Below are positions 20,376 to 41,696 of a DNA stretch of 64,000 nucleotides, one piece after another. This DNA comes from a virus. Under the pieces are notes generated by a model. The model searched no databases, was not told where the DNA came from, and was given only the letters and a program-made list of their open reading frames with translations. The position numbers were made by a program, and so were the translations under genes. How positions within the stretch are numbered: the stretch's first letter is position 1; the number at the start of each line of letters is the position of its first letter. The DNA lies in IMG/VR virus record IMGVR_UViG_3300029391_000001, positions 19,880 through 83,879 of that record; one strand, given 5' to 3'.

Positions 20376-20447
20376 CTTTCCTTAGTTCAATGGATAGAAC
20401 CTCTGTCTTCTAAACAGATAATTCCAGTTCGAATCTGGAAGGAAAGA
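20376..20447 (+). tRNA. tRNA-Arg(TCT)
   Basis: Cloverleaf by hand; loop cuUCUaa. Confidence 0.75.
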
Positions 20448-20454
20448 CTATTAT

Positions 20455-20525
20455 TCTCCCTTAGCTCAACGGTAGAGCTTTCGACTTTTAATCGAAAGAC
20501 AAGAGTTCGACTCTCTTAGGGAGAA
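20455..20525 (+). tRNA. tRNA-Lys(TTT)
   Basis: Cloverleaf by hand; loop cuUUUaa; CCA encoded. Confidence 0.75.
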
Positions 20526-20705
20526 CCAACTTTAAATAATTAAGCTATGATAAATGTAGACGAATTAAGAAACAAAAAGTAGCTCGGAGAGCGTATAGCC
20601 ATTGGTGAATTATCAAAATATGGATTAGATATTTTATTACCAATGTCTGACAATCTACCATTTGATTTTGTTATATATTATAATAACAAGTTTTACAGAA
20701 CTTAG

Positions 20706-20918
20706 GTGAAAACTACTGCGAGTAAAACTGTAAATAACTCGTTGAACTTTAGTTTAACAAGTAATAATTATAACAAAGGGACCGTTCACAAATACAACGA
20801 GGATGAAATAGATATTATGATATGTTGCGACCTTCATAACATCTATATATTTCCAGAATGTGATGTTGCTAATAGAAATTCTATTACTATTAGGGAGGAA
20901 CCTCCAGCTAATAATTAG
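20706..20918 (+). CDS. hypothetical protein
   Basis: ORF track. Confidence 0.35.
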   Translation: MKTTASKTVNNSLNFSLTSNNYNKGTVHKYNEDEIDIMICCDLHNIYIFPECDVANRNSITIREEPPANN

Positions 20919-21071
20919 ACAAAAGGTATAAACTTTGCAAAAGATTGCATCATATCTATAGAAAGATTAAATTATACTTTCTCTAAGATAGAGAAATAAT
21001 TCCCTATTAATAGGGAAGTCTTTTTCTTTTATTCTGCTAGTAAACATTTGTTGTGAAACACGTGTTTGCAT

Positions 21072-21144
21072 CTGGGTATAGTCGAGTTGGTAAGATGCTA
21101 CATTTGGGATGTAGAGACCGCAGGTTCGAGTCCTGCTATCCAGA
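21072..21144 (+). tRNA. tRNA-Pro(TGG)
   Basis: Cloverleaf; loop uuUGGga. Confidence 0.7.
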
Positions 21145-21349
21145 CAAGAAGTAATCAACATTCACTATTAGTACAGCAATTAGGACTGTAGGGTGCCTTT
21201 TAGATGAATCCCTGATTACTCCAATTAACAGAGGTGAGTTCCCTTAAAATTGTTACCACGCACTAGTGCGGCTACTAGAGGACTTGGGGTGCCAAGAGGA
21301 AGAATTGTAGTAGCTATGTTAATTAGAACAAATCTGTTAATTGCTTTAT

Positions 21350-21433
21350 GGGATAGCGCCAACGATGGAGAGTTGGGACGGACTGTAAATCCGTTGCCTT
21401 TAGGCTTAGTAGGTTCGAATCCTACCTATCCCA
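21350..21433 (+). tRNA. tRNA-Tyr(GTA), type II
   Basis: Long variable arm; loop cuGUAaa. Confidence 0.7.
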
Positions 21434-21460
21434 CAATTATGTAAAATAACTTACCAAAAG

Positions 21461-21661
21461 ATGATAAGAATTTCTAGAATTGTAGCTAAGGATAGAATAG
21501 CAGATTTGCTAGACTTGAATTTCGTATCTAAGATAACTCTTAGACAAGGATTCAAAAATCCTGCAATTTGCAGAGTGGAAATCTATCTCCAAGTAGATAA
21601 TGATACAGAATACTTTAATAGTGTTATGAGTAACATTGTTGACTGGGGGAAAGGAGCGTAA
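21461..21661 (+). CDS. hypothetical protein
   Basis: ORF track. Confidence 0.35.
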   Translation: MIRISRIVAKDRIADLLDLNFVSKITLRQGFKNPAICRVEIYLQVDNDTEYFNSVMSNIVDWGKGA

Positions 21662-22037
21662 TTGTAATATTGCTGTTACCACAGCAAATATGGCTCTACA
21701 TGATGGATTTATTAAAGAGTCTGCATTTGATGACTTTGATTATCCTATGCCAAAAAAGTATAAGGACTTATGCAGCGTATATTCTGACGAATATTTTAGA
21801 CTATTTAATAGGAGAAAGATATAATGGAAGACAAATATGAAGGGCTATCTGATGAAGAACTCAAAGAAATCTTCGAAGATATGCAGGCAGACTATTGGAT
21901 AGATTATTATCAATCTATCTATGAATAAAACCCTATTAGCGAGACCTAGGATATGGATTTTAGAAATATGTATACCCACTGCATATAGGTTAGTCATATT
22001 TAAATGAGGAAACCAGGGTTCTCTACTAGGTCGATTC

Positions 22038-22121
22038 GGGATTGTAACCGGTAATTGGTAGCCGCGCAGACTGTAAATCTGCTCTCTTTTGAGACTGGAG
22101 GTTCGAGTCCTCCCAATCCCA
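22038..22121 (+). tRNA. second type II tRNA with GTA anticodon (Tyr-like); D-arm irregular
   Basis: Acceptor gggattg/caatccc, T-arm ggagg-ttcgagt-cctcc, loop cuGUAaa, long variable arm; I could not pair the D-stem cleanly. Confidence 0.5.
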
Positions 22122-22139
22122 CACTAATTTCAATATATT

Positions 22140-22355
22140 ATGATGATATTTGTATATTCAGCATTTATATACGTAATAAGCACGTACATAGTTGGCCTTT
22201 ATATGGCAGTAAATGAACGATTTGTTACAGTTAGAAGACTCGCAATAATGGCATTACCAGTAATAAATACTATATTTGTTATTGTAATACTATTATTTGA
22301 TATTAAACCATTTATAAAAACAGTTATAAACGAATTTAAAGAAATTACAAAATGA
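22140..22355 (+). CDS. small membrane protein
   Basis: Hydrophobic. Confidence 0.4.
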   Translation: MMIFVYSAFIYVISTYIVGLYMAVNERFVTVRRLAIMALPVINTIFVIVILLFDIKPFIKTVINEFKEITK

Positions 22356-22361
22356 CAAATT

Positions 22362-22613
22362 ATGAGTACGGAGAAGGATACTTACCAGAAATCTGGTACT
22401 AGTGTAGTATTTCAAAAAGAAATTAAGCAGTGTAGAGAATGTCCGCACTGCTTAATTGTTCCTGACCCAGATCCTAATGACTGGTTCAATGATGACGACG
22501 AGAAAGCGCTCTGTAAGGAGTCTGAGAATAAACTAATTGAAGGAATGTTAAGACCTTACGAAAGGGTATTAATTCCGGATTGGTGTCCATTAAAAACTAA
22601 TAAACAAAAATGA
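22362..22613 (+). CDS. Cys-containing hypothetical protein
   Basis: ORF track. Confidence 0.4.
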   Translation: MSTEKDTYQKSGTSVVFQKEIKQCRECPHCLIVPDPDPNDWFNDDDEKALCKESENKLIEGMLRPYERVLIPDWCPLKTNKQK

Positions 22614-23074
22614 ATAGAATTAAGACAAAAGCCTATCTTGAGGTAACTTTAGAGCAGGCACGCGAATGGTATGAAAGCGGTAATGAAGACTTGAAGAAAT
22701 TAGCTCTTACTGCATTTAGTGAGGAAATGCTAATTCCTTCCTTTAAAGAGATAGTAGAGTCTGAAGAAGATTATGGTTTTTGGAATACATTAGTATGTCC
22801 TCCAAGCATGACAGAACAACTCAGTTCTCTAGCTAGTTTACAAATAGTTGCTAACTATCTAAATAAAGGATGGATCAAAACAGAAGGTAATACTGGCTAT
22901 TTTCTTGGAAGGGGTTCTTCTCTATCTGGAAAGACGGAAACTGATATAAAAGGAGTGTACGTCGTTATGCATCAAAACGTAAAATATCCAGGTGTTGTTT
23001 ATTTTAGAACTGTAGCTGATGTACAGAAAGCGGTGAAGATACTAGGAAAGAAGTTGCTGCCGCTATTCGAATAA
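22610..23074 (+). CDS. hypothetical protein
   Basis: ORF track. Confidence 0.45.
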   Translation: MNRIKTKAYLEVTLEQAREWYESGNEDLKKLALTAFSEEMLIPSFKEIVESEEDYGFWNTLVCPPSMTEQLSSLASLQIVANYLNKGWIKTEGNTGYFLGRGSSLSGKTETDIKGVYVVMHQNVKYPGVVYFRTVADVQKAVKILGKKLLPLFE

Positions 23075-23080
23075 TTTGAT

Positions 23081-23154
23081 GGTGTTATTAGTTCAGTTGG
23101 CAGAACGCTACATTGTGGCTGTAGAGGTCAGCGGTTCGAGTCCGCTATAACACC
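23081..23154 (+). tRNA. tRNA-His(GTG)
   Basis: Extra 5' G(-1) pairing with discriminator C; loop uuGUGgc. Confidence 0.75.
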
Positions 23155-23184
23155 CTAATCATGTTTTATTAAATATTATAACGA

Positions 23185-23745
23185 ATGAAAAAGACAATTG
23201 AAATTGAATGTCCAGATGGTTATAAACCCATCTATAATGCCGAAACTGGCAATGTTGAAATCGTTCCAGAAAACATTATGGGACGGATAAGAACCTATGA
23301 GGATGCTGTAAACTATCTAGGGTGTGTTACTAGAGATACTATTTACTACAATAGATCTGTAAATTCTCTAGCTAAGTTGCAGACAGTCTTGGATGCGCTA
23401 AATGAAGGTCACAAGTTCAATCTGTTAACTGGTACTATATGGTATCCCTGGGTTCGCTTCTTTAGAATGAAATCAGTTCCGAAGGATGCAGAAGTCATTG
23501 GTCACTTCCGTTATCAGGGCGAGAAATTCGCGTTGGTGGGCGGCTGCGCGGTTGTTGGCGGCAATGCGGGTCTCGGCTCTTTCTATTCTTTCCATGGCGT
23601 CGGCAGTGCCTATTCCTTTGTCGGGATGCTTGTGTGCAAATCTGAAGAGATTGCCAAATACGTATCAACCCAGTTTGGAAAGCTAGTGTTCGATGCTTGT
23701 TTTGCAAGACATTTCAAGGGTGAAGAATTTGAATGGCTTGACTAA
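23185..23745 (+). CDS. hypothetical protein
   Basis: ORF track. Confidence 0.45.
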   Translation: MKKTIEIECPDGYKPIYNAETGNVEIVPENIMGRIRTYEDAVNYLGCVTRDTIYYNRSVNSLAKLQTVLDALNEGHKFNLLTGTIWYPWVRFFRMKSVPKDAEVIGHFRYQGEKFALVGGCAVVGGNAGLGSFYSFHGVGSAYSFVGMLVCKSEEIAKYVSTQFGKLVFDACFARHFKGEEFEWLD

Positions 23746-24217
23746 TGAAAAAGTTCCTTGTAATTATGCTTGCTATGCTCTGGATGAGCGTAGCAGCATT
23801 TCTCAGATAACTCAGGAAGATTATGATAAGTTACCCAATGAGACTAGAACTCAAATTGAGAAGATAACAACAGAGAAGGCTATAAAGGGTGAAATCAAGG
23901 AAGTTTCTGAGTATGCAAATCTCGGTAAGGAGATTGGAGTAGCCGTTAATGAAACTTTGAAGGCAGTTGAAGATTCAGCCATAAGAATAGCAGAATCCAA
24001 CCTGGGACAAACAGCAATAACTATCGTAGTATGGAAACTTCTCTATAAGGAGATAGCTGGAATTGTAGTAGGCACCATACTATTAGGAATATCAGTATTT
24101 ATGCTACTAACTGGTAGAGGAAAACTATCCAAAAACGATGAAGATGCTGGAGGTTGGATAAGTGTGGTAGGAGGAGCTGTATTCTTTATATCTTCAATGA
24201 TTTGTATATTTGGCTGA
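23693..24217 (+). CDS. membrane protein
   Basis: C-terminal TM helices. Confidence 0.4.
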   Translation: MLVLQDISRVKNLNGLTNEKVPCNYACYALDERSSISQITQEDYDKLPNETRTQIEKITTEKAIKGEIKEVSEYANLGKEIGVAVNETLKAVEDSAIRIAESNLGQTAITIVVWKLLYKEIAGIVVGTILLGISVFMLLTGRGKLSKNDEDAGGWISVVGGAVFFISSMICIFG

Positions 24218-24312
24218 GGAGCAATCCAGGCTATAGGCTGGTGTATTCTAGCTATATTCTGTGTATTATTGCTTCTTGGTATGATTCTTAGCTAGTCATA
24301 AGACTAGCTTTT

Positions 24313-24393
24313 GGAAGGGTGGCAGAGTCAGGTTTATTGCAACGGTCTTGAAAACCGTCGGGCGTCCCCAGGGTTCGAATCCCTGTCCTTCCG
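24313..24393 (+). tRNA. tRNA-Ser(TGA)
   Basis: Type II; loop cuUGAaa. Confidence 0.7.
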
Positions 24394-24399
24394 CAATAT

Positions 24400-24473
24400 A
24401 TAGGATTGGTGTTTAACGGTTAGCACGTCGGTCTCCAAAACCGAAAGTAAGGGTTCGAATCCTTTATCCTATG
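24400..24473 (+). tRNA. tRNA-Trp(CCA)
   Basis: Cloverleaf; loop cuCCAaa. Confidence 0.7.
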
Positions 24474-24496
24474 CAAATATCAATAACTAAAAACTT

Positions 24497-24715
24497 ATGA
24501 AGAGAATTAGATTAATTTGTATGATGGCTGTTGTAGCAATAGTTACGGCAGTCTGTTGTTCGTTTACTTCTAGGGAAGACCGAAATCATTTTTCGGTTAT
24601 AAAGGTATATACCGACCCTAATAGTCACATGAATGTCTATAGAGTCTCCGTTCCTGGGAGAGTGTATTACGTACTTCATAATACGACTCAAGGAGGGTTA
24701 TGTAAATTACAATGA
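24497..24715 (+). CDS. small membrane protein
   Basis: N-terminal TM helix. Confidence 0.4.
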   Translation: MKRIRLICMMAVVAIVTAVCCSFTSREDRNHFSVIKVYTDPNSHMNVYRVSVPGRVYYVLHNTTQGGLCKLQ

Positions 24716-25239
24716 GCGAAACTTATTATCTCTTAGCAGCCATTTCGTATGGCATTTTTATTGTTCAGTTCATACTCTCTTGGTTTGGTGGCGACACTGA
24801 CTTAGATGTAGATTTAGATGGAGAATTGGACATGGATGTGAGTGATATTGTCTCTTTTAAAGGACTAGTACATTTTGTAATGGGAGCAAGTGGATGGCTT
24901 TGTATTAAGCATTCCGTTTCTCATTCTATAGAATGGTACGATTATTTAATCGCATTAATATGCGGTATTCTTTTTGTGGTTATACTTTACTACTTATATA
25001 AACTTTGTTTAAAACTCCAACATCAAGTTATTCCTGAAAAGGGTGAAGCCTTAGTTGGGAGAATTGGAACAATCACTATCCCTAATGATATTTCTGGTGG
25101 TAGTTCTGTTATCTTAGTTGAGATAAATGGAATGCTTCAAGAATTGTCAGCTTATGCTGAAGAAGAGCATAAGACGTATAAAAACGGGGACAAAGTGAGA
25201 ATTTCAAAATTTGAGAATGGAAAGTATTATTTTAACTAA
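24712..25239 (+). CDS. NfeD-like membrane protein (partner of SPFH proteins)
   Basis: TM helices plus C-terminal OB-fold-like domain; sits immediately upstream of the SPFH gene. Confidence 0.5.
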   Translation: MSETYYLLAAISYGIFIVQFILSWFGGDTDLDVDLDGELDMDVSDIVSFKGLVHFVMGASGWLCIKHSVSHSIEWYDYLIALICGILFVVILYYLYKLCLKLQHQVIPEKGEALVGRIGTITIPNDISGGSSVILVEINGMLQELSAYAEEEHKTYKNGDKVRISKFENGKYYFN

Positions 25240-25254
25240 AAAGAATTTTTAAAG

Positions 25255-27228
25255 ATGACAACAGAAACTCTTATTGTAGCGGGTGTTATTGTACTCTTAG
25301 TAGTTGTAACTTTTATCGGACTTTTGTCTCGGTATCGTAAGTGTGCTAGTGATGAAATCCTGGTAGTATTTGGTAAGGCAGGAAAGAAGAAGGTAGTTAA
25401 CGAGAAGACTGGTAAAACGGAGGAAGTTATACTGCCGTCTAAAATCATCCACGGCGGAGGTACATTCGTAATGCCTGTCATTCAAGACTGGGCTAAAATG
25501 TCCTTGAAACCTATTCAGATTCAGGTAATGGTAGAGGGAGTATCCAGCCAAATGATTAAGGTTAGGATTCCTGTGACATTAACTACTGGTATAGGAACCG
25601 ATCAAGTACTAATGCAAAACGCTGCAAGCAGATTCTTAACAGCTAAAACTTCTGAAATCTCAGACCAAATCAAGGATATTCTCATTGGTGAAGTGAGAAG
25701 CTTGATGGCAACAATGACGATTGAGGAAATAAATGCTGATAGAATCAAATTTATCGGCAAGGCAAAAGAGAATATTGAAACTGAGTTGAACAAGGTAGGT
25801 TTCAGTATTATCAATATTAACAACGCTGATATCTCGGACGATGCAAACTATATCAAGAATCTTGGTCAGAAAGCTGCAACTAAAGCTCTTGCTCAGGCAC
25901 AGGCTGACATTGCAGAAGAGAAAAAGAAAGGAGATATTCAGATTGCAGAAACCAACAAGCAACGTGAAATTGCTGTAGCAGACGCTGAGAAAGAGCGTGA
26001 AACTACTGTTGCTCAGACTAGACAAGAGCAAGAGGTTCGTGTGGCAGAGATTAACCAGGAGAAGGAAATCAAACTTGCAGAAGCTGAGAAGAATAAGCAA
26101 TCAGGTATTGCTAATCAGAAAGCTGAACAAGCTGCCAATATTGCTAAAGCTAATACTGCAGCGGAATCAGAGAAAGCTAAAGCAGAAGCTGAGAAAATTT
26201 CAGCTATAGCTAAAGCTCAAGCAGAAGCCGATTCTAACAGAGCAGAGTCTGAATCACTGGCTGAGGCTAATGTAGCTAAGGCTAAAGCAGAAGCTGACTC
26301 TAAGAAAGCAGAAGCAGAAGCAGAGAAACAAACTCGTATTGCTCAGGCTAAACAAAAACAGGAAGCTGAGACGCAAAAGGCAATTAACGAACAGGAAGCT
26401 GCAGTTGCTAAGTATGAGTCAGACAAGCGTGTAAAGGCAGCTGAAGCTGATAAGATTGCAGGAGTGGCAGAACAAAATGCCACAATTGAAGTCTCTAAAG
26501 CTAAGGGAGAGGCCGAGAAAGCTAAGGCTGAAGCTGAAAAGGTAGCAGGAACTTCTAAGGTAGAAGCTCAAATGACTATCGAGAAAACTAAGCAAGAAAA
26601 GCAACTGGAAGTAAACGAAGCAGCTGCATTGGCTATGGAAGCTAAGCTTCATGCTGAGACGATTGTTCCTGCTCAAAAGGAGAAGGAACGTATCACGATT
26701 GAAGCAGAAGCTGTTAAGCAGAAAGCTGTACTTGAAGCAGAAGCTAAGGCTGCTGAAATTCTGAAAGAAGCAGAAGCTAAAGCGAATGCTACAAAGTTGC
26801 AGCTAGAAGCCGAAGCTGAAGGTACAAGAAAGAAACTGCTTGCTGAAGCTGAGGGTAAGAGAGCATCTTTGATGGCTGAGGCTGATAAAGTCCAGGCTAT
26901 TGAAATGGCTCCTGCTCTGGCAGTCCAGAAGATGATTGAATCTGGCTTGACTCCTGAAATGGTGGTTCAGTACAAGACAGTTGACCAGTTGACAGGTATT
27001 GCAGAAGCATCTGCTCAGATGTTTGAACACGTTCACCTTGGACAGGTTACTGTTTATGGTAACGAGAATACCGCTGGTAACTTCATGGCTAAAACTGCTG
27101 AGAACTTGAATCCTGCGTTCGACTTGCTTCGCTCTATACCTTTCGCTGATACACTGAAAAGTGTTCTCGGCAAGAAAGAGTTGGAGGAGAAGAAAGCTGA
27201 AACAACTGAGTTTGAAGAAGTGAAGTAA
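25255..27228 (+). CDS. SPFH/band-7 flotillin-like protein with long Ala/Glu/Lys-rich coiled-coil
   Basis: N-terminal TM plus SPFH domain; AEAEKAKAEAEK repeats. Confidence 0.65.
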   Translation: MTTETLIVAGVIVLLVVVTFIGLLSRYRKCASDEILVVFGKAGKKKVVNEKTGKTEEVILPSKIIHGGGTFVMPVIQDWAKMSLKPIQIQVMVEGVSSQMIKVRIPVTLTTGIGTDQVLMQNAASRFLTAKTSEISDQIKDILIGEVRSLMATMTIEEINADRIKFIGKAKENIETELNKVGFSIININNADISDDANYIKNLGQKAATKALAQAQADIAEEKKKGDIQIAETNKQREIAVADAEKERETTVAQTRQEQEVRVAEINQEKEIKLAEAEKNKQSGIANQKAEQAANIAKANTAAESEKAKAEAEKISAIAKAQAEADSNRAESESLAEANVAKAKAEADSKKAEAEAEKQTRIAQAKQKQEAETQKAINEQEAAVAKYESDKRVKAAEADKIAGVAEQNATIEVSKAKGEAEKAKAEAEKVAGTSKVEAQMTIEKTKQEKQLEVNEAAALAMEAKLHAETIVPAQKEKERITIEAEAVKQKAVLEAEAKAAEILKEAEAKANATKLQLEAEAEGTRKKLLAEAEGKRASLMAEADKVQAIEMAPALAVQKMIESGLTPEMVVQYKTVDQLTGIAEASAQMFEHVHLGQVTVYGNENTAGNFMAKTAENLNPAFDLLRSIPFADTLKSVLGKKELEEKKAETTEFEEVK

Positions 27229-27234
27229 TTCACA

Positions 27235-27285
27235 GCGAAGGGGCTTTACAATTTCAATAGTAAAGTATAACAAAAGCCCCTTCGC
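27235..27285 (+). terminator. hairpin gcgaaggggcttt...aaagccccttcgc after the SPFH gene
   Basis: 13-bp inverted repeat. Confidence 0.4.
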
Positions 27286-27290
27286 AATTT

Positions 27291-27368
27291 GGAGGTATGG
27301 GTGAGTGGCTTAAACCACCGTCCTGCTAAGACGGAGGGCCTTCGGGTCCCCGAATCCAGCTGCCTCCG
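27291..27368 (+). tRNA. tRNA-Ser(GCT)-like with non-canonical T-arm
   Basis: Acceptor ggaggta/tgcctcc, D-arm, anticodon stem ccgtc/gacgg, loop cuGCUaa; I could not fold the T-arm region (gggtccccgaatcc) canonically. Confidence 0.45.
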
Positions 27369-27384
27369 CTTAATAAAATTTGTT

Positions 27385-27666
27385 ATGGAAGAAAGAATTG
27401 AAATCTTTAAGTCTCTTCATAAGTCATTTCTTGATATGCTTATGGATGATACTTGGTTAATGGAAGAGCCTATTGACGTAGCTGAAACAGAAGCTTGCTG
27501 GAGATGGGCAATAGAATTAGGAGATGAAACTGTTCCGGTAGAAAAATTTGAGGAAGAATTTAAGTTTTCTTTACAAGATTTAACTAACTGGTGGAACAAA
27601 AAAGTATTAGAGATTGAGTATCTAATTACATGGGACGATAGCTCAGTAGGTAGAGCGCTGGACTGA
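27385..27666 (+). CDS. hypothetical protein (ORF trimmed to ATG after the tRNA)
   Basis: ORF track; 5' part overlaps the tRNA. Confidence 0.4.
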   Translation: MEERIEIFKSLHKSFLDMLMDDTWLMEEPIDVAETEACWRWAIELGDETVPVEKFEEEFKFSLQDLTNWWNKKVLEIEYLITWDDSSVGRALD

Positions 27667-32252: not shown

Positions 32253-32272
32253 CTAATTTTAAATTTAAAAAT

Positions 32273-34778: not shown

Positions 34779-35284
34779 GTGTAATACAACAAGTTTATTT
34801 AGCTGAAGCTGGTTATTCTATTTACATAAAGGGAATTAAACCAGATAAGGATAATGAATGTTCTGGTGAGATTACTATAAATGGTAATCCCACTAGATTA
34901 GAGAGAAAAGAACGCTATCATATTGATGGCAGTATGCTTGAGCATAAAGATTCAGAAATGTGTCGTAGTTGCTGGGAAGAACTTAATGGAATTGGTAACA
35001 AAACATTAGGTTATTATACATCTGGGCAGAAGTACTTATCATCTAAATGTCAAGAAATAAGGACTAATGCTCGTAGAGTATTAGAAAGTTCCGAACGTGA
35101 GAAAGTATGTCAATATTGTCATAATCATGAATTTGATGCAATACTTGAAGTACATCATCTTAAAGGAATATTAGAATTTGACGAAGACACTCTTATTAAG
35201 GAGATTAACAACGAGAATAATTTAGTATGGTTATGTCCGAATCACCATATTATGTTAGAGAAGGGTTTAATTAGTCTGGAGTAA
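34775..35284 (+). CDS. HNH endonuclease
   Basis: CxxC...EVHHLKG...N.LVWLCPNHH. Confidence 0.65.
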   Translation: MSVIQQVYLAEAGYSIYIKGIKPDKDNECSGEITINGNPTRLERKERYHIDGSMLEHKDSEMCRSCWEELNGIGNKTLGYYTSGQKYLSSKCQEIRTNARRVLESSEREKVCQYCHNHEFDAILEVHHLKGILEFDEDTLIKEINNENNLVWLCPNHHIMLEKGLISLE

Positions 35285-35295
35285 TCCAGTTACAC

Positions 35296-35367
35296 CGAGG
35301 GTTAGTTCAGTGGTAGAATAGTGCACTGTCTATGCGAAGGTCACCAGTTCGAGTCTGGTACTCTCGG
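35296..35367 (+). tRNA. tRNA-Asp(GTC)
   Basis: Loop cuGUCua. Confidence 0.6.
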
Positions 35368-35405
35368 CACTGTGAAGGTTGGGGTTCGAATCCCCCAGCC
35401 TCGGC
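35368..35405 (+). other. tRNA 3'-end fragment (T-arm tgggg-ttcgaat-ccccc plus agcctcgg)
   Basis: Partial duplicate of a tRNA 3' portion between Asp and Thr tRNAs. Confidence 0.3.
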
Positions 35406-35411
35406 ATTTAT

Positions 35412-35484
35412 TCCCCTGTAGTTTAGTTGGTTAGAACACGTGATTTGTAATCTCGAGACCTCGGTTCGAATCCGAGTGGGGGAT
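35412..35484 (+). tRNA. tRNA-Thr(TGT)
   Basis: Loop uuUGUaa; one U.U mismatch in the anticodon stem. Confidence 0.6.
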
Positions 35485-35511
35485 CTTAACCATTAAATTA
35501 GATTAATTTTT

Positions 35512-36186
35512 ATGACTAGATTAGAAAAGTATTTAGTAGCAACTGCTACTGAGATTATCGAAGCGGAAACAACTGTTTCTCGCTACTTTGTCATTGGAAA
35601 CGTCAAAGTTAGAGTATCAGACCATTTAAGTAAAATGAGTGATGCAGACTTACAAGTGATTATTCCATTGAACGGAGGGACTAAGTATATAGTTACTGTT
35701 AAGGATAGTCCTGGAAAATTTCTTGTATGGAATGCAACTCAAATAAAAGACTTTATTCCTTCATTGCAGATTATTAAGGGCTTGAAGGAAGGAGTGCAAC
35801 TTAAGCCAAAACCTAAAGACTCTGCAGTTCAGAAGATTCAGCTAGCATTAAATAATAGTAATACCGATGGAGGTTCGTTAACGTTTGATGGTACTATTAT
35901 TGAGTCTAGATTGAAAGAAAAGCAACTTACTTCCAAACAGCGGGAAGTTTTCAGGAGAACTAAATCTACTTGGGATATTTCTCAGATTGGGACATTACCC
36001 AGTATGATTAAAGTAGATTTAGGATTGTCAAATGGTTCTGTAAACGAAGATGTGCAGATATTTCTAACTTGTACATCTTTAACCTACAAAGAAATTCTGA
36101 ACATTTATAAAATAATAGTTGTTGATAACCGTATGGTTCCAACTATTAAACTGTTGCAAGAAGCTTATAGCTTGATTGTGCAGTAG
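35512..36186 (+). CDS. hypothetical protein
   Basis: ORF track. Confidence 0.45.
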   Translation: MTRLEKYLVATATEIIEAETTVSRYFVIGNVKVRVSDHLSKMSDADLQVIIPLNGGTKYIVTVKDSPGKFLVWNATQIKDFIPSLQIIKGLKEGVQLKPKPKDSAVQKIQLALNNSNTDGGSLTFDGTIIESRLKEKQLTSKQREVFRRTKSTWDISQIGTLPSMIKVDLGLSNGSVNEDVQIFLTCTSLTYKEILNIYKIIVVDNRMVPTIKLLQEAYSLIVQ

Positions 36187-36189
36187 GAT

Positions 36190-36261
36190 AGCGCCATCAT
36201 CTAATGGTTAGGATTCAGGCTTTTCACGCCTGCCATACGGGTTCGAATCCCGTTGGCGTTA
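36190..36261 (+). tRNA. tRNA-Glu(TTC)
   Basis: Loop uuUUCac. Confidence 0.7.
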
Positions 36262-36266
36262 CTATG

Positions 36267-36301
36267 TACCCCAGCAGCGAAAGTTGTTGGGGTATTTTTT
36301 G
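36267..36301 (+). terminator. intrinsic terminator hairpin (ccccagca...ttgttgggg) plus T-run
   Basis: GC stem followed by T-run after the tRNA array. Confidence 0.5.
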
Positions 36302-36312
36302 TTTAATTTAAT

Positions 36313-36639
36313 TTGTGTTTAATGCGAAAAACATTTGAGTTTGTAAAGGTTGGAGGAGTCTGGTTCTATTGGTGGCCAGATTACGACGGAACACCAGAGG
36401 AACTAGCAATGGTTGGTGGTGCAGATGAACTTCTTGATTCTCTAGATAATAAGTTTGTTAGATTGCAGATGGTTGACCCAGCTGCAGCTAAGATAACGTT
36501 GTCTAAAATTGAGGAGGATGAATGTGGAGCAACTTACTTATGCAAAAGTAAGAATTACAATGACAGGGTATGGATTTGTGCTGTAACTCTATCAGTATTC
36601 GGGGAATATCCTCAAAATATTTACCTAAAAGATATGTAA
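36313..36639 (+). CDS. hypothetical protein
   Basis: ORF track. Confidence 0.4.
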   Translation: MCLMRKTFEFVKVGGVWFYWWPDYDGTPEELAMVGGADELLDSLDNKFVRLQMVDPAAAKITLSKIEEDECGATYLCKSKNYNDRVWICAVTLSVFGEYPQNIYLKDM

Positions 36640-36642
36640 AAA

Positions 36643-37068
36643 ATGAAAACGTTAAATGAGATTTTAGACAATTACAAAGACTATGCCGTAGTTCTCGATG
36701 ACCGTTTCGGTTCTAGATTAGCAAAGTTTTTAACAGAAGAGCAGTTAGAAAAAATAGGCTTCAAGTACGATGGTGATGAGCCTTATCCAGAGCCTAAGGA
36801 ATGGACTAGAGGGAATATCCTAGAGCAACTTAAGTCTGACGTAGAGTTTGGTTTTGAGAAGGCTCTAGACCAGAGAGGCATTTCAGCTAGCCTAATGTTC
36901 TACGTGGTACTAAGATGGAATCAAGTTCTAGAAGAGGGCTTAGAGAATTATCCTGAAGAGAATTATGCTATGTATGGGTTGCCTTTGTTTAAGGCTACTG
37001 CTGTAAAGTACGGATGGGAGAATACTATAGGCGACGATAATGGGGACGAAGAGTTCTACAATGAGTAG
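36643..37068 (+). CDS. hypothetical protein
   Basis: ORF track. Confidence 0.45.
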   Translation: MKTLNEILDNYKDYAVVLDDRFGSRLAKFLTEEQLEKIGFKYDGDEPYPEPKEWTRGNILEQLKSDVEFGFEKALDQRGISASLMFYVVLRWNQVLEEGLENYPEENYAMYGLPLFKATAVKYGWENTIGDDNGDEEFYNE

Positions 37069-37264
37069 CGCTATGAAGGAATCTTCTATACTTAAAGCAA
37101 TTTCTGACGCTATTGAAGAATACGAGGAAAATCAACAAAGACGAATAGACCTGTTAGAGAGTAAAATTCTGCTATTTGAGAGAGAAAGGGAGGCTTTTAT
37201 TCGGCATTTGAGAGAAGGAAACATTCAATTATTAAAGGATTATCTAGGAATTAAAGATGAGTAA
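37040..37264 (+). CDS. hypothetical protein
   Basis: ORF track. Confidence 0.35.
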   Translation: MGTKSSTMSSAMKESSILKAISDAIEEYEENQQRRIDLLESKILLFEREREAFIRHLREGNIQLLKDYLGIKDE

Positions 37265-37580
37265 GTACTATTTAATTAAGGAATGTAATAATATTCCTTT
37301 TATCTTAGGACAGTTCGATAGTATTGAAGAGGCTGAGGCCGCTCTTCCTTCTACAAATAAGAAGGGAGCTAAGCACTTTGTCGTTTGTTCTACAGAGCAA
37401 TTAAAGTCAGCAAGGGCGGCTATATCCTACTTACAAGAAGAACTTAGAAAGAGTCGAGAGGAGGTACGGCAATGGAGGGATTTAGAACTTAAAACAAGGC
37501 TAGATTTCTCAAACCAAATCTGTGAATTATCGAAGATAGCTAATCTAACTGTAGAGGACCTAACTAAAGTATTGTTATGA
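37257..37580 (+). CDS. hypothetical protein
   Basis: ORF track. Confidence 0.4.
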   Translation: MSKYYLIKECNNIPFILGQFDSIEEAEAALPSTNKKGAKHFVVCSTEQLKSARAAISYLQEELRKSREEVRQWRDLELKTRLDFSNQICELSKIANLTVEDLTKVLL

Positions 37581-37879
37581 TAGTAAGTTCTCCTTTTGAT
37601 AAAGATTTGCTTGGACATGAGATAAGGGGTGTAAATACATCTTACTACGGACTTTCTGCATTGCAGGCTGTAATAAATCATGACGGAATCCGTCAAGATA
37701 TTGCAAAATATATGTATAGAGACTGCATTGTAGATGGAGGACGAAAAGGAGTAATCATAGGATTTGAGGATAATAATCAATTCTTTGATTACTACTATAT
37801 AGTCTATGTGCCAGAGCTAAATACTACTGTATATCAATTAGCTAATGATGCGAGATTTATTAATTCAATTGAGATATGA
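37577..37879 (+). CDS. hypothetical protein
   Basis: ORF track. Confidence 0.4.
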   Translation: MIVSSPFDKDLLGHEIRGVNTSYYGLSALQAVINHDGIRQDIAKYMYRDCIVDGGRKGVIIGFEDNNQFFDYYYIVYVPELNTTVYQLANDARFINSIEI

Positions 37880-37934
37880 AAGTATATTATATTTCAATTC
37901 CCACGGCAATATGGCGGGCAAGTCCCTATAAACT

Positions 37935-38531
37935 ATGAGAAGATCTCTCCTCTTTTTTCTAGAGAAGAAAGACGCTATAGAATGGGCGGTAACTCAAAAT
38001 TACTGGGATATTAGATTAATAGAAGAAGAAGTTTTTATGAAAAAGAAAGTTTTAATTATCCTCATGATTAGTATTGTATTCGGATTTGCAACTGGTTATT
38101 CTTTGCATCATCTGATACATTTCAATCAGAAACAGGAGGAAATGGTATTGCTGCCAGAGCATCCATTCTACTTATTGGATGAAGTAAACGAAGAAGTATT
38201 GTACAATACTTTGAAGCATTACGATTTTCCAAATCCAGCAATTATAACAGCTCAGGCTGTTCTGGAATCTGGCAATTTTAAATCGAAACTTTGTAAGGAC
38301 AATAACAATCTGTTCGGGTTGTATAACTCCAGAACAATGTCTTACTTCAAGTTCGATAGTTGGATAAGCTGTGTGTTCGCTTATAAGCAATTTATCCTTA
38401 GTAAGTATAACCCAGAAGAGGATTATTACAAATTCCTAGACAGAATTGGCTACGCTGAGGATTCCTTGTATGAAAGTAAAGTTAAGGAATTGGAATTAGA
38501 TATACTTAATAAATATGGAAGCTCAAATTGA
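37935..38531 (+). CDS. glucosaminidase-domain (FlgJ/mannosyl-glycoprotein endo-beta-N-acetylglucosaminidase-like) peptidoglycan hydrolase with N-terminal TM
   Basis: ITAQAVLESGNFKS...NNLFGLY motif. Confidence 0.55.
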   Translation: MRRSLLFFLEKKDAIEWAVTQNYWDIRLIEEEVFMKKKVLIILMISIVFGFATGYSLHHLIHFNQKQEEMVLLPEHPFYLLDEVNEEVLYNTLKHYDFPNPAIITAQAVLESGNFKSKLCKDNNNLFGLYNSRTMSYFKFDSWISCVFAYKQFILSKYNPEEDYYKFLDRIGYAEDSLYESKVKELELDILNKYGSSN

Positions 38532-38781
38532 AGAAGCTATCAAATTTAGAAAGAAAGCTAATTTCAAGATATTAACTAGATTGAGTCAAATCATTGACCA
38601 ATATCCTTATCTAAGATTTCACCAAATTCTTATGATATATAAGATTAGTGAGCTGGGAGTGGATAAGTTCAATGAGGAGAGTGTAGAAACTTTGAAGAAG
38701 CTAGAGCATGAAATGGTGGAAAAAGGAATTAGTAAGATTACTAGTAATAGTTCTGATGGGAACAATACTATTAGTAACTAG
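38515..38781 (+). CDS. hypothetical protein
   Basis: ORF track. Confidence 0.35.
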   Translation: MEAQIEEAIKFRKKANFKILTRLSQIIDQYPYLRFHQILMIYKISELGVDKFNEESVETLKKLEHEMVEKGISKITSNSSDGNNTISN

Positions 38782-38862
38782 GGAAGTAATGGGTTTTGAG
38801 ACCGCAGTTATGACTGGTCTAACTATTATATTATGCAATCAAATATTTAACGAATAAAGATT

Positions 38863-39102
38863 ATGAATTTTAAAGATTTCAAGAAAGATGTAGAGTCTGC
38901 TTTCAATGCTATGATTGCAGATAATTTATTTGTAGTTAATGTAGACAAAGACCTTTTGTGGATGAGTTATCTCCTCTCCTTTGAGGACGAAACAATTCGA
39001 CAAGATCACAATTGTAATGCTTGTAAGTCTTTCATACGTCACTATGGTAAGGTAGTCGCTATAGACCCCTCAAACCTACAAGGTGAAAACCTTCTGGGAT
39101 GA
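38863..39102 (+). CDS. hypothetical protein (possibly the 5' part of the next gene via a frameshift)
   Basis: 20-nt overlap with 39083..40867 in a different frame. Confidence 0.3.
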   Translation: MNFKDFKKDVESAFNAMIADNLFVVNVDKDLLWMSYLLSFEDETIRQDHNCNACKSFIRHYGKVVAIDPSNLQGENLLG

Positions 39103-40867
39103 TGTTCACACTCCTGGCTATGAAAAGACCGCATCGGATTTGGCTAAACTCGTTAAGGAAGCCGGAATAGGAGATATATTCATTCAGGATGTTAATGAGT
39201 TTCACGGTTGTGACCATAATGTGCAACTTCTTCCTGATGGAACTACTAGAACTTGGACTCACTTGTACGTGACTATTCCTAACAAGTTTAAATTCAACAA
39301 GAGAGTACATCATTTCGATTCTGCCGCAGGTTATCGCGGAGATGCTAGAGCTGGTGTCTTTGAACGCTCTCTTTCCGAGCTTAAACTAAGTGCGGTAGAA
39401 ACCGTAATTGAGTTGATAGAGGATAATAATCTCTATCGCGGAGAGGAGTTCCTAAAGACTCTGCAAGAGTTCAGAAGAACTATGCTTGAGGCCGATAATC
39501 TCTCACCAGAGGTTCGCACTAACTATTGTTGGTTTAACTTCAAATCTCCAATAGCTAAGATTAGAAATACAGCTATGGGAACTCTACTGATTGACTTAAG
39601 TAATGGTGTGGACCTGGAAAGAGCTGTTAAGTCTTATGAGAACATTATGGCTCCATCTAACTATAAGAGACCTACTGCTCTTATTACTAAGAAACAAATT
39701 GAGGCTGCTCAGAAGAAGGTTGAAGAACTTGGGTTAACTGATGCCCTTCCTCGCCGTCATGCTCGTGTAGAAGATATTTCTGTGAATGATGTTCTATTCG
39801 TAAATAGAGATACTAGAGCAAAGATGAAGGGAGGAATGTTTGATATGCTCTCCGAAACTTCTACAGTAAACCCAAAAGAGTTTACCAAAGCCCAAGAGGT
39901 TTCTGCTGATGCCTTTGTCAAGAATATACTTCCGGGAGCTAAGGAGGTTTCTATCTTGGTAGAGAACAGACACATTCCCAACTTTGTTACTCTGACTGCT
40001 CCTGAAAATCCGGATGCTGGACAGTTGTTTAAGTGGAATAACAACTTTGCTTGGGTTTATAATGGTTCTGTAGCCGATTCCTTCAAGGAGAAGGTAAAGG
40101 CTGCTGGTGGAAATGTAGACGGTTTCATGAGATGCTCTCTTCACTGGTTTAACTATGATGACCTTCATGTAACCGAACCTGGTGGAAGAGAAATCTATTA
40201 TGGAAGCAAAACTGGTTATACTGGAGGAACTCTTGATGTTGACATGAATGCAGGTTCCGGAAAAACTAGAGATGCTGTTGAGAACATCATATGGACAGAC
40301 CCTAGCAGACTAAGACCGGGAGATTATGTGGTAAGAGTGCATAACTTCTATAAGAGGGAAAGTATTGATTTTGGTTTCGAAATGGAAATCGAGATTAATG
40401 GAGAACTTCACAAATTCCAGTATGGAAAAGTAGTTCTGAGCAAGGAATACATTGAAGTTGCTCGTATCCATGTTGATGGACAAAGAAACATTTCCATGAC
40501 TCCTACTATTAAAGAGGGTTCTACATCGTTCAAATCTACTAACGAGTGGGGAATTGATACAATGAAATTCCAGAAGGTTTCTTGTATTATGTTCTCTCCT
40601 AATCATTGGGAAGGCAACGCTATAGGAAACAAGCATCTGTTCTTTATGATAGATGGATGCAAGAATCCAGACCCTGTTAGAGGTTTCTTTAATGAATATC
40701 TGAGAGCTGACCTTGAAAAGGAGCATAGAAGAGTGTTTGAAGCTCTTGGTTCTAGAGCAAAAGCTGAGTACAGTGATGACCAGTTGAGTGGATTGGGATT
40801 TTCTAGCACATCACACAATGATGTTGTTGTAAAAGTTGATAATAAATCATTTAAAATCATTTTCTAA
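39083..40867 (+). CDS. large hypothetical protein (594 aa)
   Basis: ORF track. Confidence 0.5.
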   Translation: MKTFWDDVHTPGYEKTASDLAKLVKEAGIGDIFIQDVNEFHGCDHNVQLLPDGTTRTWTHLYVTIPNKFKFNKRVHHFDSAAGYRGDARAGVFERSLSELKLSAVETVIELIEDNNLYRGEEFLKTLQEFRRTMLEADNLSPEVRTNYCWFNFKSPIAKIRNTAMGTLLIDLSNGVDLERAVKSYENIMAPSNYKRPTALITKKQIEAAQKKVEELGLTDALPRRHARVEDISVNDVLFVNRDTRAKMKGGMFDMLSETSTVNPKEFTKAQEVSADAFVKNILPGAKEVSILVENRHIPNFVTLTAPENPDAGQLFKWNNNFAWVYNGSVADSFKEKVKAAGGNVDGFMRCSLHWFNYDDLHVTEPGGREIYYGSKTGYTGGTLDVDMNAGSGKTRDAVENIIWTDPSRLRPGDYVVRVHNFYKRESIDFGFEMEIEINGELHKFQYGKVVLSKEYIEVARIHVDGQRNISMTPTIKEGSTSFKSTNEWGIDTMKFQKVSCIMFSPNHWEGNAIGNKHLFFMIDGCKNPDPVRGFFNEYLRADLEKEHRRVFEALGSRAKAEYSDDQLSGLGFSSTSHNDVVVKVDNKSFKIIF

Positions 40868-40869
40868 TT

Positions 40870-41208
40870 ATGTACAAACAAGCGTCTAAAATGAAGTTGC
40901 GCTTTGCAACTAGTAAAGGTAATTTGAGTGTGGAAGATTTGTGGGACTTAAGTCTGCCTGCATTGGACAGACTGGCAGTGTCCTATGACGAAGAATTAGC
41001 CAAGAGTCCTAGAAAATCTTTCATAACTAATGATACTCCTAGCAATAGCGAACTGGAGTTAAAGTTCAACATTGTGAAAGATGTTATCACTGATAAGCTG
41101 AAAGACAAGGCCGCTAGAGAAGCAGCTAAAGATAAGGCAGCTGAGAAGGCACGCCTGACTGAACTGCTGGCTAAGAAACAGTCTGAGAAAATGGAAAGTA
41201 TGTCCTAA
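40870..41208 (+). CDS. hypothetical protein
   Basis: ORF track. Confidence 0.4.
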   Translation: MYKQASKMKLRFATSKGNLSVEDLWDLSLPALDRLAVSYDEELAKSPRKSFITNDTPSNSELELKFNIVKDVITDKLKDKAAREAAKDKAAEKARLTELLAKKQSEKMESMS

Positions 41209-41209
41209 G

Positions 41210-41524
41210 ATGAAATCAGACAACGACTTGCAGAACTCGGATAATTGTGTCGTATTGAAAACAGTTAGTCCACAAATCTTAGATAAACTAAGGGAAAGTG
41301 GATTGACTGTTTGTACGTGTTGTGAATTTCCTGGTACAGCCTGGTTAGTATTCAGACCAAATATGCCTACATCGGATATTCACGGTGAGGGGTATGATTT
41401 CGAAGAGATAGGACTTTTTGGAACAGAGGCTGTTCTCAAATACTTCGAAGCTAACACTCCGAATTATGTAGATTGCGGAACTGATGTCGATAAATTTATT
41501 AACATTTGTTTGCAGTTTAAATAA
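41210..41524 (+). CDS. hypothetical protein
   Basis: ORF track. Confidence 0.4.
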   Translation: MKSDNDLQNSDNCVVLKTVSPQILDKLRESGLTVCTCCEFPGTAWLVFRPNMPTSDIHGEGYDFEEIGLFGTEAVLKYFEANTPNYVDCGTDVDKFINICLQFK

Positions 41525-41610
41525 GTTAACGGTTTTTAACTTTGAATTTAACACTTGTACTGTTATTATAGTAAGTTGATTAGCGGTACGTGAGTATAGC
41601 TAATTACTAT

Positions 41611-41696
41611 GCCCGAATGGTGGAATTGGTAGACACGTCAGATTTAAGCTCTGATGCCCAGTAATGGGCGTGTGGGTTCGAGTCCCACTTCGGGTA
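41611..41696 (+). tRNA. tRNA-Leu(TAA)
   Basis: Type II; loop uuUAAgc. Confidence 0.7.

Follow-up and report, generated by a model that had tools for sequence, protein, structure and literature searches.

A putative isoleucine tRNA with a rearranged core in the changing tRNA array of a human-gut phage

The stretch of DNA analysed here (64,000 nucleotides (nt), positions 19,880 to 83,879 of the IMG/VR virus record IMGVR_UViG_3300029391_000001; its full length is referred to below as the window) holds the tRNA array of a ~190-kb human-gut phage, the late genes of which read TAG as sense. ARAGORN places 20 tRNAs on the plus strand at 20376..41697, and the Rfam tRNA model (RF00005) adds 33979..34051 (Ala), 28743..28819 and 34264..34319 at its gathering score, as well as 27291..27368 (33.4 bits, with the T arm skipped) when lax filters are employed. 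These 24 tRNA-type genes, together with two fragments (28697..28742 and 35369..35407), give a total of 26 elements, in agreement with the original prediction, which was made from the sequence alone and envisaged a large array of about 24 genes. That prediction had also set several members apart as irregular, and standard tools do not treat these as ordinary tRNAs either: ARAGORN misses three of them, and their Rfam scores lie at 30-39 bits compared to 42-72 bits for canonical members. Our main subject is one of these elements, the RNA encoded on the plus strand at 28743..28819, which reaches 31.7 bits with the Rfam tRNA model and which we describe as a rewired tRNA-Ile(UAU)-type RNA. Comparisons were made with 51 related loci (IMG/VR contigs, mostly 90-193 kb) that were retrieved via the SPFH-domain protein encoded at 25255..27228, compared loci being labelled with L-numbers (for example, L204 is the Streptomyces phage Jay2Jay, NC_029098). 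Counterparts in GenBank are unannotated fragments only, labelled 'Bacteriophage sp.' and obtained from human faeces.

In at least 19 of these relatives, the site of 28743..28819 holds an intact, canonical 76-nt tRNA(CAU) with the sequence GGACCTA...TAGGTCCA. About 46 nt from the start of this tRNA(CAU) are left in the window and six relatives (28697..28742, plus strand; interrupted 3' of the D arm), immediately upstream of the 77-nt element; the tRNA 5'-half fragment that had been noticed just upstream of position 28743 corresponds to this remnant. At 28725..28741 the arms of the remnant's anticodon stem keep their orientation and the loop is reverse-complemented (CTCATAA to TTATGAG), which resembles a hairpin-mediated loop inversion, and the same junction is present in the gut-phage contigs L107, L123, L135 and L140. 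We also considered 28697..28819 as one tRNA split by an intron, a reading that we reject because GGACCTA has no 3' partner and relatives carry the tRNA(CAU) as a separate gene. A covariance model of the rewired RNA (R1, see below) detects the element in 7 of the 52 sequences of the phage group, namely in the window itself and in six related loci out of 51.

The structure of the element was derived from an alignment (A2) of 67 diverse family members, which is almost gap-free over 78 columns and in which element position plus 28742 gives the window coordinate. All parts lie on the plus strand. They comprise a 7-base-pair (bp) acceptor stem (1-7/70-76; window 28743-49/28812-18), a 3-bp helix that we call P2 (11-13/37-39; window 28753-55/28779-81), an anticodon stem (16-19/27-30; window 28758-61/28769-72) that closes the hairpin 28758..28772 with its loop CUUAUAC (28762-68, UAU at 28764-66), a D-loop-like segment 3' of the anticodon arm (28782-94), and a T arm (28795-28811; T stem 53-57/65-69). 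A single tertiary-type pair joins positions 42 and 52, and the RNA ends with the discriminator A28819, after which comes C28820. Family members are about 78 nt long, and their parts follow one another from 5' to 3' as acceptor strand, invariant U8 and A9, U10, the 5' strand of P2, CU, the anticodon hairpin, an invariant UNGAAA, the 3' strand of P2, the segment U-A-R-N-N-G-G-U-N-N-C-A-Y, the T arm and the 3' strand of the acceptor stem. The segment after P2 resembles a D loop in having an invariant A at the place of A14 and an invariant GG at the place of G18/G19, and length variation in the family occurs just 3' of this GG. The usual D hairpin (10-13/22-25) is absent, only 6 nt lying between A9 and the anticodon stem.

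This structure pairs 97.8% of the cells in A2, and 18 of its 20 pairs are changed on both sides. Its covariation score is 0.846, compared to 0.212 in shuffled alignments (none of 500 reaches the observed score) and at most 0.18 when the pairing partners are slid by 1-3 columns. In the acceptor stem all seven pairs covary and 97% of cells are paired over the 67 sequences; in P2 and the 4-bp anticodon stem, all pairs of which covary, 100% of cells pair. Pair 11-39, for instance, is CG in 54, UA in 8 and AU in 5 sequences, and pair 12-38 is CG in 41, UA in 21, GC in 4 and AU in 1. Compensatory changes are seen in four of the five pairs of the T arm, whose loop reads TTCRANN, and pair 42-52 covaries between AU (45) and GC (14), like the Levitt pair 15-48. 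The anticodon loop has the form CU-NAU-R/A-N, with U33 and a purine at 37, and the discriminator is A in 167 of 167 distinct members, 164 of which end in A-C after the acceptor stem. Moreover, RNAalifold independently gives the same four helices, and R1, the covariance model based on A2, gives 99.4 bits to the window element and no more than 35 bits to ordinary tRNAs. On the strength of these alignments we regard both the structure and the family membership as nearly certain. The perfect acceptor stem and T arm described earlier are upheld, whereas the anticodon hairpin proposed at the same time, with a loop of 8-10 nt (uuGUAGaaag), exists only as the minimum-free-energy fold of the single sequence: 71% of its cells pair across the family, with failures at pair 27-38 (46/67 sequences) and pair 29-36 (30/67 sequences).

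Relative to the cloverleaf, the D-stem 5' strand and D loop appear to have swapped places with the D-stem 3' strand and anticodon arm. The strand polarity would let P2 stack on the anticodon stem as the D stem does, and P2, the 4-bp stem and the appositions that may form at U10-U40, C14-A36 and U15-U31 would then build about ten layers, approximating those of the D stem, 26:44 and the anticodon stem. Because contacts of the U8-A14, R15-Y48 and G18/G19-T loop types could still form, the molecule might be L-shaped, and we infer by structural analogy that the rewired RNA would mimic an ordinary tRNA in three dimensions.

A pattern taken from the central hairpin and T loop has at least 120 matches in viral contigs; among the matches listed, nearly all are colinear and gap-free with differing acceptor stems. 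In total, 167 distinct sequences were collected, from marine, gut, crAss-like and Streptomyces phages. The GenBank phages contribute 80 records with the element, nearly all unannotated, including 77 Streptomyces phages and one crAss-like phage, Kehishuvirus tikkala. The Kehishuvirus copy (OQ198717 95577..95654) occupies an unannotated gap between tRNA-Trp and tRNA-Met, and both it and the copy in Jay2Jay (NC_029098 75237..75314) have the loop CUGAUAA (GAU). The Jay2Jay copy lies outside the main tRNA clusters, 13 nt downstream of an annotated nucleotidyltransferase (NC_029098 74702..75223; L204 960..1481), and a functional link such as CCA addition is possible. One GenBank record labels the element tRNA-Leu, evidently because UAGAAAG was taken as the anticodon loop. 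A looser pattern, applied to one genome per species, finds about 40 more members with UAU, GAU and four CAU loops, nearly all of them within dense tRNA arrays on contigs of metagenome-assembled genomes from many phyla.

Standard searches recover little of this family. At default settings the element goes uncalled by ARAGORN in 38 further loci as well as in the window, and the Rfam tRNA model, which exceeds its gathering score of 29 in the window, does so in three of about nine members tested elsewhere. At a low threshold ARAGORN returns an 85-nt tRNA-Ile(tat) at 28734..28818, which has the right anticodon, but its mismatched acceptor stem and its D stem are contradicted by covariation. No family for the rewired element exists in Rfam 15, and we found no description of it in open-access papers, literal sequence strings included, although a prior report elsewhere is possible. 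The rewired RNAs appear to form a widespread, previously undescribed class of Ile-specific tRNA. Another unusual Ile-type design is seen among other UAU tRNAs, which are cloverleaves with a variable arm of 20-25 nt (L065, L167, L092, L097, L145, L096, L070, L086, L111, L117 and L132) and share a CAAG-CUUAUAC-CUUG anticodon arm.

All anticodons in the family are of the Ile type (GAU, UAU or CAU), and all members have A73. When the 7-nt loop was left free in the viral-contig pattern, the matches listed include at least 138 with CTTATAC and at least 7 with CTTATAT, and none of 2.9 million viral contigs gave a match in which position 35 is not A or position 36 is not T. The position-35 test in a larger metagenome set gave eight matches, all of which lack the acceptor stem and T arm and are chance occurrences. 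Moreover, a descriptor of topology only, with no sequence fixed in the stems, P2, the internal loop or the anticodon, yields 158 distinct elements in 9.35 Mb of array-rich sequence, with the anticodons TAT (122), GAT (30) and CAT (6) and no others. Kehishuvirus combines a canonical Ile(UAU) with its rewired GAU copy, and some phages have two rewired copies with different anticodons. Among 48 arrays with at least eight canonical tRNAs, 17 have only a canonical Ile of the complementary anticodon, 3 have one of the same anticodon, and 28 have no canonical Ile(GAU/UAU), a count that may be incomplete in that the arrays were sampled as fetched stretches of at most ~15 kb.

In the window there is no Ile tRNA besides 28743..28819, and AUA accounts for 27% of the Ile codons of the plus-strand block and 46% of those of the late block, or 20-34 per 1000 codons. 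The UAU gene stands exactly where relatives have the canonical tRNA(CAU). We propose that the rewired RNA would undergo processing, receive Ile from IleRS and function on the ribosome, and that the UAU version in the window would decode AUA, having replaced the canonical tRNA(CAU). The element at 28743..28819 is most likely, though unproven, an AUA-decoding tRNA-Ile, aminoacylation and decoding being suggested by sequence and genomic context. According to a review (PMC8007984), bacteria and phage tRNA sets generally lack UAU anticodons, and part of this absence may reflect failure to detect the rewired family.

Several points weigh against this assignment. The short stretches over which arrays were sampled matter here, and a close relative of the window does have an Ile(GAU) further downstream; in the three arrays noted above, moreover, the canonical Ile tRNA would duplicate the anticodon of the rewired copy. 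The replaced tRNA(CAU) may be either Ile2 (lysidine type) or an elongator Met. At the level of structure, U8, A41, G45, G46 and UNGAAA are invariant, so that the contacts proposed for them lie beyond the covariation test, and the anticodon stem has only four Watson-Crick pairs with a U-U flank, one pair fewer than usual. The IleRS identity elements known from the D stem and anticodon stem in Escherichia coli lack an obvious counterpart in the rewired RNA. In addition, the family was gathered by sequence patterns, which could have overlooked, beyond the compared loci, members for other amino acids whose core signature differs.

A second non-canonical member of the array is the initiator-type tRNA(CAU) at 33055..33134 (Met1; plus strand), which is called by ARAGORN and has an Rfam score of 39.2 bits. 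Met1 has a C1xA72 mismatch, A11:U24 and a bulge of 7 nt (CAUAAAC) in the 5' strand of its T stem, which reads GU[CAUAAAC]GG / CC(U)AC and thus departs from a regular 5-bp T stem. Its anticodon stem (A29:U41, G30:C40, G31:C39) contains two of the three initiator G:C pairs, and its relatives have C1xU72 or A1xA72 at the end of the acceptor stem. We searched viral contigs for the T arm of Met1 and, in a second round, for an insert of any kind in that position; GenBank supplied two further cases, GiJojo and LR756508. The bulged T arm is found on different bodies, one starting AGCGGGG... with a UUGGG/CCCAA anticodon stem (L330) and one starting CGCGGAG... (L331, L337), and the bulge itself varies, being AAUAAAC in L387 and L412, CUCAAAC in L442 and CUUUUAAAC in a 484-kb uncultured phage (LR756508). 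Gene 13 of the Streptomyces phage GiJojo, annotated as an 81-nt tRNA-Met, combines the bulge CUCAAAC with C1xU72, and it shares with L330 and L442 a GGG/CCC anticodon stem. All bulge-bearing tRNAs are initiator-like, with a 1x72 mismatch and a CAU anticodon. Because the search patterns fixed the T arm, these matches demonstrate recurrence in diverged bodies and not covariation of the T stem. Recurrence in divergent phage initiator-type tRNAs argues that Met1 is a variant and not a product of decay, and Met1 would be a functional initiator variant on this evidence. The original prediction, which placed the gene at 33055..33132, was right about the C1.A72 mismatch and the irregular T stem; its view of the arm as degenerate does not hold, as the bulge recurs in other phages. 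Bulged-T-stem initiator tRNAs may be a second, smaller functional class in which the bulge might exclude EF-Tu; as a matter of speculation, the Met1 bulge, which lies in the part of the T stem contacted by EF-Tu, could act as an anti-determinant for elongation. A search of open-access papers for bulged-T-stem initiator tRNAs, literal sequence strings included, gave nothing relevant.

The remaining irregular elements were each aligned to their counterparts in the 51 related loci, and several prove to be debris. The tRNA-Ser(GCU) at 27291..27368 (plus strand; Rfam 33.4 bits) has a defective T arm, as had been reported, the cause being a deletion of 7 nt (GCTGGTT), private to this genome, by which the T stem loses its 5' strand. 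The gene is intact, at 85 nt, in all of 35 relatives, where the anticodon and variable stems show compensatory changes, which implies that the gene is functional in the family and broken or mis-assembled in the window; the window copy is either defective or an assembly error. The second Met gene (Met2), a truncated initiator-type tRNA(CAU) at 34256..34319 (plus strand; partial Rfam match of 30 bits, 34264..34319), had been described as having a degenerate or missing T arm and is indeed a remnant. A 6-nt deletion (GACTCC), which is shared with L019 only, spans its T-stem/acceptor junction, and its 3' end is missing. Relatives have an intact Met2 (CGCGGGA..., C1xU72), a Met2 fused to the 3' end of tRNA-Thr by deletion between two GGTTCGAATCC T loops, or different internal deletions. 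The isolated tRNA 3' fragment placed earlier at 35368..35405 is likewise real, and sequence reading puts it at 35369..35407 (plus strand), where an anticodon-stem piece, a T arm and an acceptor 3' strand remain of an Asp-like tRNA; the remnant is common to L001, L009, L013 and L016.

Two further genes are irregular in ways that differ from these deletions. The second tRNA-Cys(GCA) (32168..32253, plus strand; 86 nt, called by ARAGORN) has U73 and a long, class-II-like variable arm of 5 bp (AAAGA-GAAA-UCUUU), and it lies directly upstream of a GIY-YIG gene. Twelve relatives have an identical copy and L003 a broken one, and among GenBank phages the gene is confined to this phage group; CysRS or SerRS may be the charging enzyme. 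A group I intron extending across this gene, the GIY-YIG gene and Met1 was considered and rejected, as both tRNAs are complete and there is no Rfam intron match at E<=10. The tRNA-Ala(UGC) at 33979..34051 (plus strand; Rfam 37.1 bits, found by ARAGORN only at a lowered threshold) retains G3:U70, has mismatches 5-68, 6-67 and 7-66 at the base of the acceptor stem and carries a private C-to-T change in the D stem. The mismatches are present in 31 of 33 relatives (L008 being a chimera and L021 having a 10-nt deletion), as a result of which its function cannot be judged from variation. An alternative fold with a register shift and one bulged U would give seven pairs at the cost of one T-stem pair.

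Chimeras provide a further indication of change in the array. In L008 (~18652..18740) the 5' part of Ala continues into the 3' end of a tRNA(CAU), at the Met2 site of L041, L032, L017 and L014 the 5' part of Met2 is joined to the 3' end of Thr, and in L018 (17419..17486) it is the 5' part of Met1 that has acquired the Thr 3' end. All of these joints lie inside the shared GGTTCGAATCC T loop, which shows T-loop recombination to delete whole array stretches. The array is being reshuffled by small deletions and T-loop recombination, several of the flagged oddities are debris, and most of the irregularities can be put down to recent lesions. In our model, small deletions would account for Ser(GCU) and Met2, recombination between near-identical T loops for the chimeras in relatives and for the Asp 3' remnant, and homing-endonuclease genes (GIY-YIG, HNH) would contribute a third kind of change. 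The canonical tRNA-Cys(GCA) is split at its anticodon loop by ~486 nt in L020 (14677..15231) and L013 (14659..15222); this insert, which contains no open reading frame and matches no Rfam intron, may represent an intron or a disruptive insertion.

The best explanation of the locus, and one that we consider probable from these comparisons, is an array in flux in which 28743..28819 is a rewired phage tRNA-Ile that takes part in decoding. The balance also tips, if narrowly, towards the broader proposal that many phage lineages (marine, crAss-like, Streptomyces siphoviruses and large gut phages) encode functional Ile tRNAs with a transposed core. The rewired RNA might instead be a mimic of tRNA-Ile that does not decode, serving as a sponge or decoy that draws off a host factor acting on tRNA-Ile (TilS, IleRS, an anticodon nuclease or an acetylating toxin, for example) or as a regulator that reports Ile-tRNA status. 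The very strong sequence conservation of its core, including the UNGAAA loop, would suit specific recognition by a protein, and the family is limited to one amino-acid type, is found only on phage-like tRNA arrays and in three of these accompanies a canonical Ile tRNA of the same anticodon. We nevertheless think such a role unlikely, given that anticodons are complementary in 17 of the 20 arrays having a canonical Ile and that 28 arrays have no other Ile tRNA, a distribution that looks like an isoacceptor set. Moreover, the loops are canonical, with U33, a purine at 37 and all three anticodons of the Ile box, and the acceptor stem, discriminator A and C74 are retained, as charging requires.

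It is quite improbable, in our judgement, that the element acts as a tRNA-like processing signal for RNase P or RNase Z on the array transcript and has no later role. Its acceptor/T-arm minihelix is of the kind recognized by RNase P and it is positioned between array genes, but such a signal would need neither a covarying anticodon hairpin with an NAU-limited loop nor the D-loop-like GG segment and the Levitt-like pair, and neighbouring ordinary tRNAs already supply cleavage sites. To the view of 28743..28819 in the original prediction, as a decayed pseudogene or as a decoder of quadruplets or frameshifts with the loop uuGUAGaaag, we give next to no likelihood, and it can be considered refuted by the comparative data unless the family alignment is an artefact. 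A fragment of another tRNA does lie immediately upstream, the element occurs in only 7 of the 52 sequences of the phage group, and the single sequence does form that hairpin at minimum free energy; the competing helices, including the real hairpin at 28758..28772, are 100% paired with compensatory changes compared to 71% for the uuGUAGaaag hairpin, and covarying conservation across marine, gut, crAss-like and actinophage genomes is not expected of a pseudogene. Very unlikely, finally, is the idea that all non-canonical members, including Met1 and the long-arm Cys, represent decay under relaxed selection. Different lesions of the same genes in many relatives (deletions, chimeras and insertions), the mismatched Ala acceptor stem in 31 of 33 relatives and two private or near-private deletions in the window are all consistent with decay, but the Met1 bulge recurs in bodies with compensatory differences in the acceptor, D and anticodon stems (GiJojo and the 484-kb phage), and the rewired Ile family is strongly conserved. 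Pseudo-looking tRNAs in phage arrays are therefore better seen as a mix of real decay and conserved non-canonical species, and only comparison of relatives separates the two.

The ordinary members of the array, all on the plus strand, are for the most part those listed in the original prediction, the departures being that there are two genes each for Tyr(GUA) and Cys(GCA) and that the second Cys and the Ala gene are irregular. The canonical tRNA-Arg(UCU) (20376..20448, Rfam 64.4 bits) and tRNA-Lys(UUU) (20455..20528, 71.8 bits) are followed by a canonical tRNA-Pro(UGG) (21072..21145), a class II tRNA-Tyr(GUA) with a low Rfam score of 39.4 bits (21350..21434), a second tRNA-Tyr(GUA) (22038..22122), tRNA-His(GUG) (23082..23155), tRNA-Ser(UGA) (24313..24394) and tRNA-Trp(CCA) (24400..24474). 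A tRNA-Phe(GAA) with a variable loop of 10 nt (27632..27709) and tRNA-Gln(UUG) (27771..27843) are seen by ARAGORN and by Rfam with lax filters. Further along lie the first tRNA-Cys(GCA) (30447..30521), tRNA-Gly(UCC) (31832..31907), tRNA-Gly(GCC) (31912..31984), tRNA-Asn(GUU) (33378..33450), tRNA-Asp(GUC) (35296..35368), tRNA-Thr(UGU) (35412..35485), tRNA-Glu(UUC) (36190..36262) and tRNA-Leu(UAA) (41611..41697), and with the exception just made for Phe and Gln all of these genes are found by both ARAGORN and Rfam. Interspersed with them on the same strand are the GIY-YIG homing-endonuclease gene (32273..32908; Pfam PF01541, E=6e-13 on a translation reading TAG as Q, with 6 in-frame TAG codons) and an HNH endonuclease gene (34775..35284; Pfam PF13391, PHROG 8446). 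In the interval that separates the SPFH stop codon from the Ser(GCU) gene, a long-range inverted repeat at 27234..27287 (GCGAAGGGGCUUU ... AAAGCCCCUUCGC) probably acts as a terminator or as a hairpin for processing.

The recoding of TAG is evident from the late genes. In window positions 1-8000, coverage by open reading frames rises from 0.11 to 0.89 once TAG is taken as sense, and the terminase large subunit (5063..7426, minus strand, 19 in-frame TAG codons) and portal protein (2700..4871, minus strand, 28 in-frame TAG codons) are recovered only when TAG is read through. The frequency of TAG is 23 per 1000 codons in the late block (1..11000, minus strand) versus 2.5 per 1000 in the plus-strand block. 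Between the late block and the plus-strand tRNA-array block, and outside 20376..41697, lies a Gln-like suppressor tRNA(CUA) (13296..13368, minus strand; ARAGORN, Rfam 66.3 bits) that is identical to the phage's own tRNA-Gln(UUG) at 52 of 74 aligned positions. This tRNA(CUA) probably serves the TAG-recoded late genes, and its likeness to tRNA-Gln suggests a Gln identity. With in-frame TAG codons in conserved late genes and a phage-encoded tRNA(CUA), the window belongs to a TAG-recoded (code 15-like) phage, and TAG-recoded gut phages with suppressor tRNAs are a known pattern (PMC10879173, PMC11210395). Efforts to find a theta or hepatitis delta virus-like ribozyme near the suppressor tRNA or Met1, an idea taken from PMC10879173, gave no Rfam match (E<=5 around 12700..13600, and none in 20000..42000), no dedicated descriptor having been used. 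A RAGATH-14 RNA (16396..16602, Rfam 156.6 bits) is followed directly by a degenerate tRNA-like gene (16620..16686) whose D arm is shortened and whose 'anticodon' loop has 4 nt. In the same place, relatives have an intact second suppressor-type tRNA with the anticodon CUA (L036 2154..2224) or UUA (L040 1539..1609), one nucleotide of which is deleted in L049.

Should the rewired RNA prove to work as a tRNA, it would be the first widespread non-organellar tRNA with core segments out of cloverleaf order, and it would broaden the range of structures considered adequate for RNase P, CCA addition, IleRS, EF-Tu and the bacterial ribosome. A non-cloverleaf tRNA would then work on ordinary bacterial ribosomes, the Ile decoding capacity of phages (above all for AUA via UAU) would have been systematically under-counted, and engineers would gain a naturally orthogonal-looking scaffold. 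Because standard pipelines skip or misname the element, phage tRNA repertoires, codon-usage matching and inferences about AUA decoding are biased. The existence of cultured carriers (Jay2Jay and Kehishuvirus tikkala) makes the question directly testable.

The rewired family resembles canonical tRNA-Ile (GAU, CAU with lysidine and, rarely, UAU) in its 7-bp acceptor stem, 5-bp T stem, TTCRANY loop and A73, in its 7-nt anticodon loop with U33, a purine at 37 and GAU, UAU or CAU, and in its presence in phage arrays. It differs in that there is no D hairpin between the acceptor and anticodon arms, that the 3-bp helix encloses the anticodon hairpin and the GG segment stands at the place of the variable loop, and that ARAGORN does not call it and the Rfam tRNA model gives ~30 bits or nothing. 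Mitochondrial tRNAs that lack a D arm (mammalian mt-tRNA-Ser(AGY) and those of nematodes) show that function is possible without a conventional D hairpin, but they have a short flexible connector, have lost the elbow formed by GG and the T loop, and depend on specialized mitochondrial machinery (PMC7609411). The phage family, in contrast, keeps the GG segment, the Levitt-like pair and a full T arm, and belongs to viruses of ordinary bacteria. Allo-tRNAs (8/4 or 9/3; PMC5389517) and tRNA-Sec are similar in having come from the mining of metagenomes and phages, in being missed or misnamed by tools and in departing from the cloverleaf with an L shape kept, as the rewired RNA would. Allo-tRNAs have altered acceptor and T-stem lengths and many anticodons, however, whereas the rewired family has a 7/5 split, a reordered core and Ile-type anticodons only, and it is not an allo-tRNA because this 7/5 split is kept and is supported by covariation.

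The tRNA-like domain of transfer-messenger RNA (tmRNA) also joins an acceptor stem to a T arm and has a reduced D region, but the rewired element has no mRNA-like part, no pseudoknots and no G3:U70 (pair 3-74 in the family is mostly G-C, A-U or U-A), and it is a 77-nt RNA with an anticodon hairpin. We rejected a tmRNA-like reading on finding that the Rfam tmRNA model gives 23.8 bits, compared to a gathering score of 47, and matches with its two ends only. Met1 is like the bacterial initiator tRNA-fMet in its 1x72 mismatch, A11:U24 and CAU anticodon; Met1-type tRNAs differ in having a bulge of 7-9 nt in the 5' strand of the T stem (between positions 50 and 52), with a conserved AAAC as the 3' part of the bulge. 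Finally, the window is akin to the tRNA arrays known from large phages, in which homing endonucleases occur, and to TAG-recoded gut phages with suppressor tRNAs (PMC10879173, PMC11210395), having ~24 tRNA genes among small open reading frames and GIY-YIG/HNH genes, TAG codons in late genes and a Gln-like tRNA(CUA). Nothing essential sets it apart from such arrays at the level of the array, and the difference lies in two of its members.

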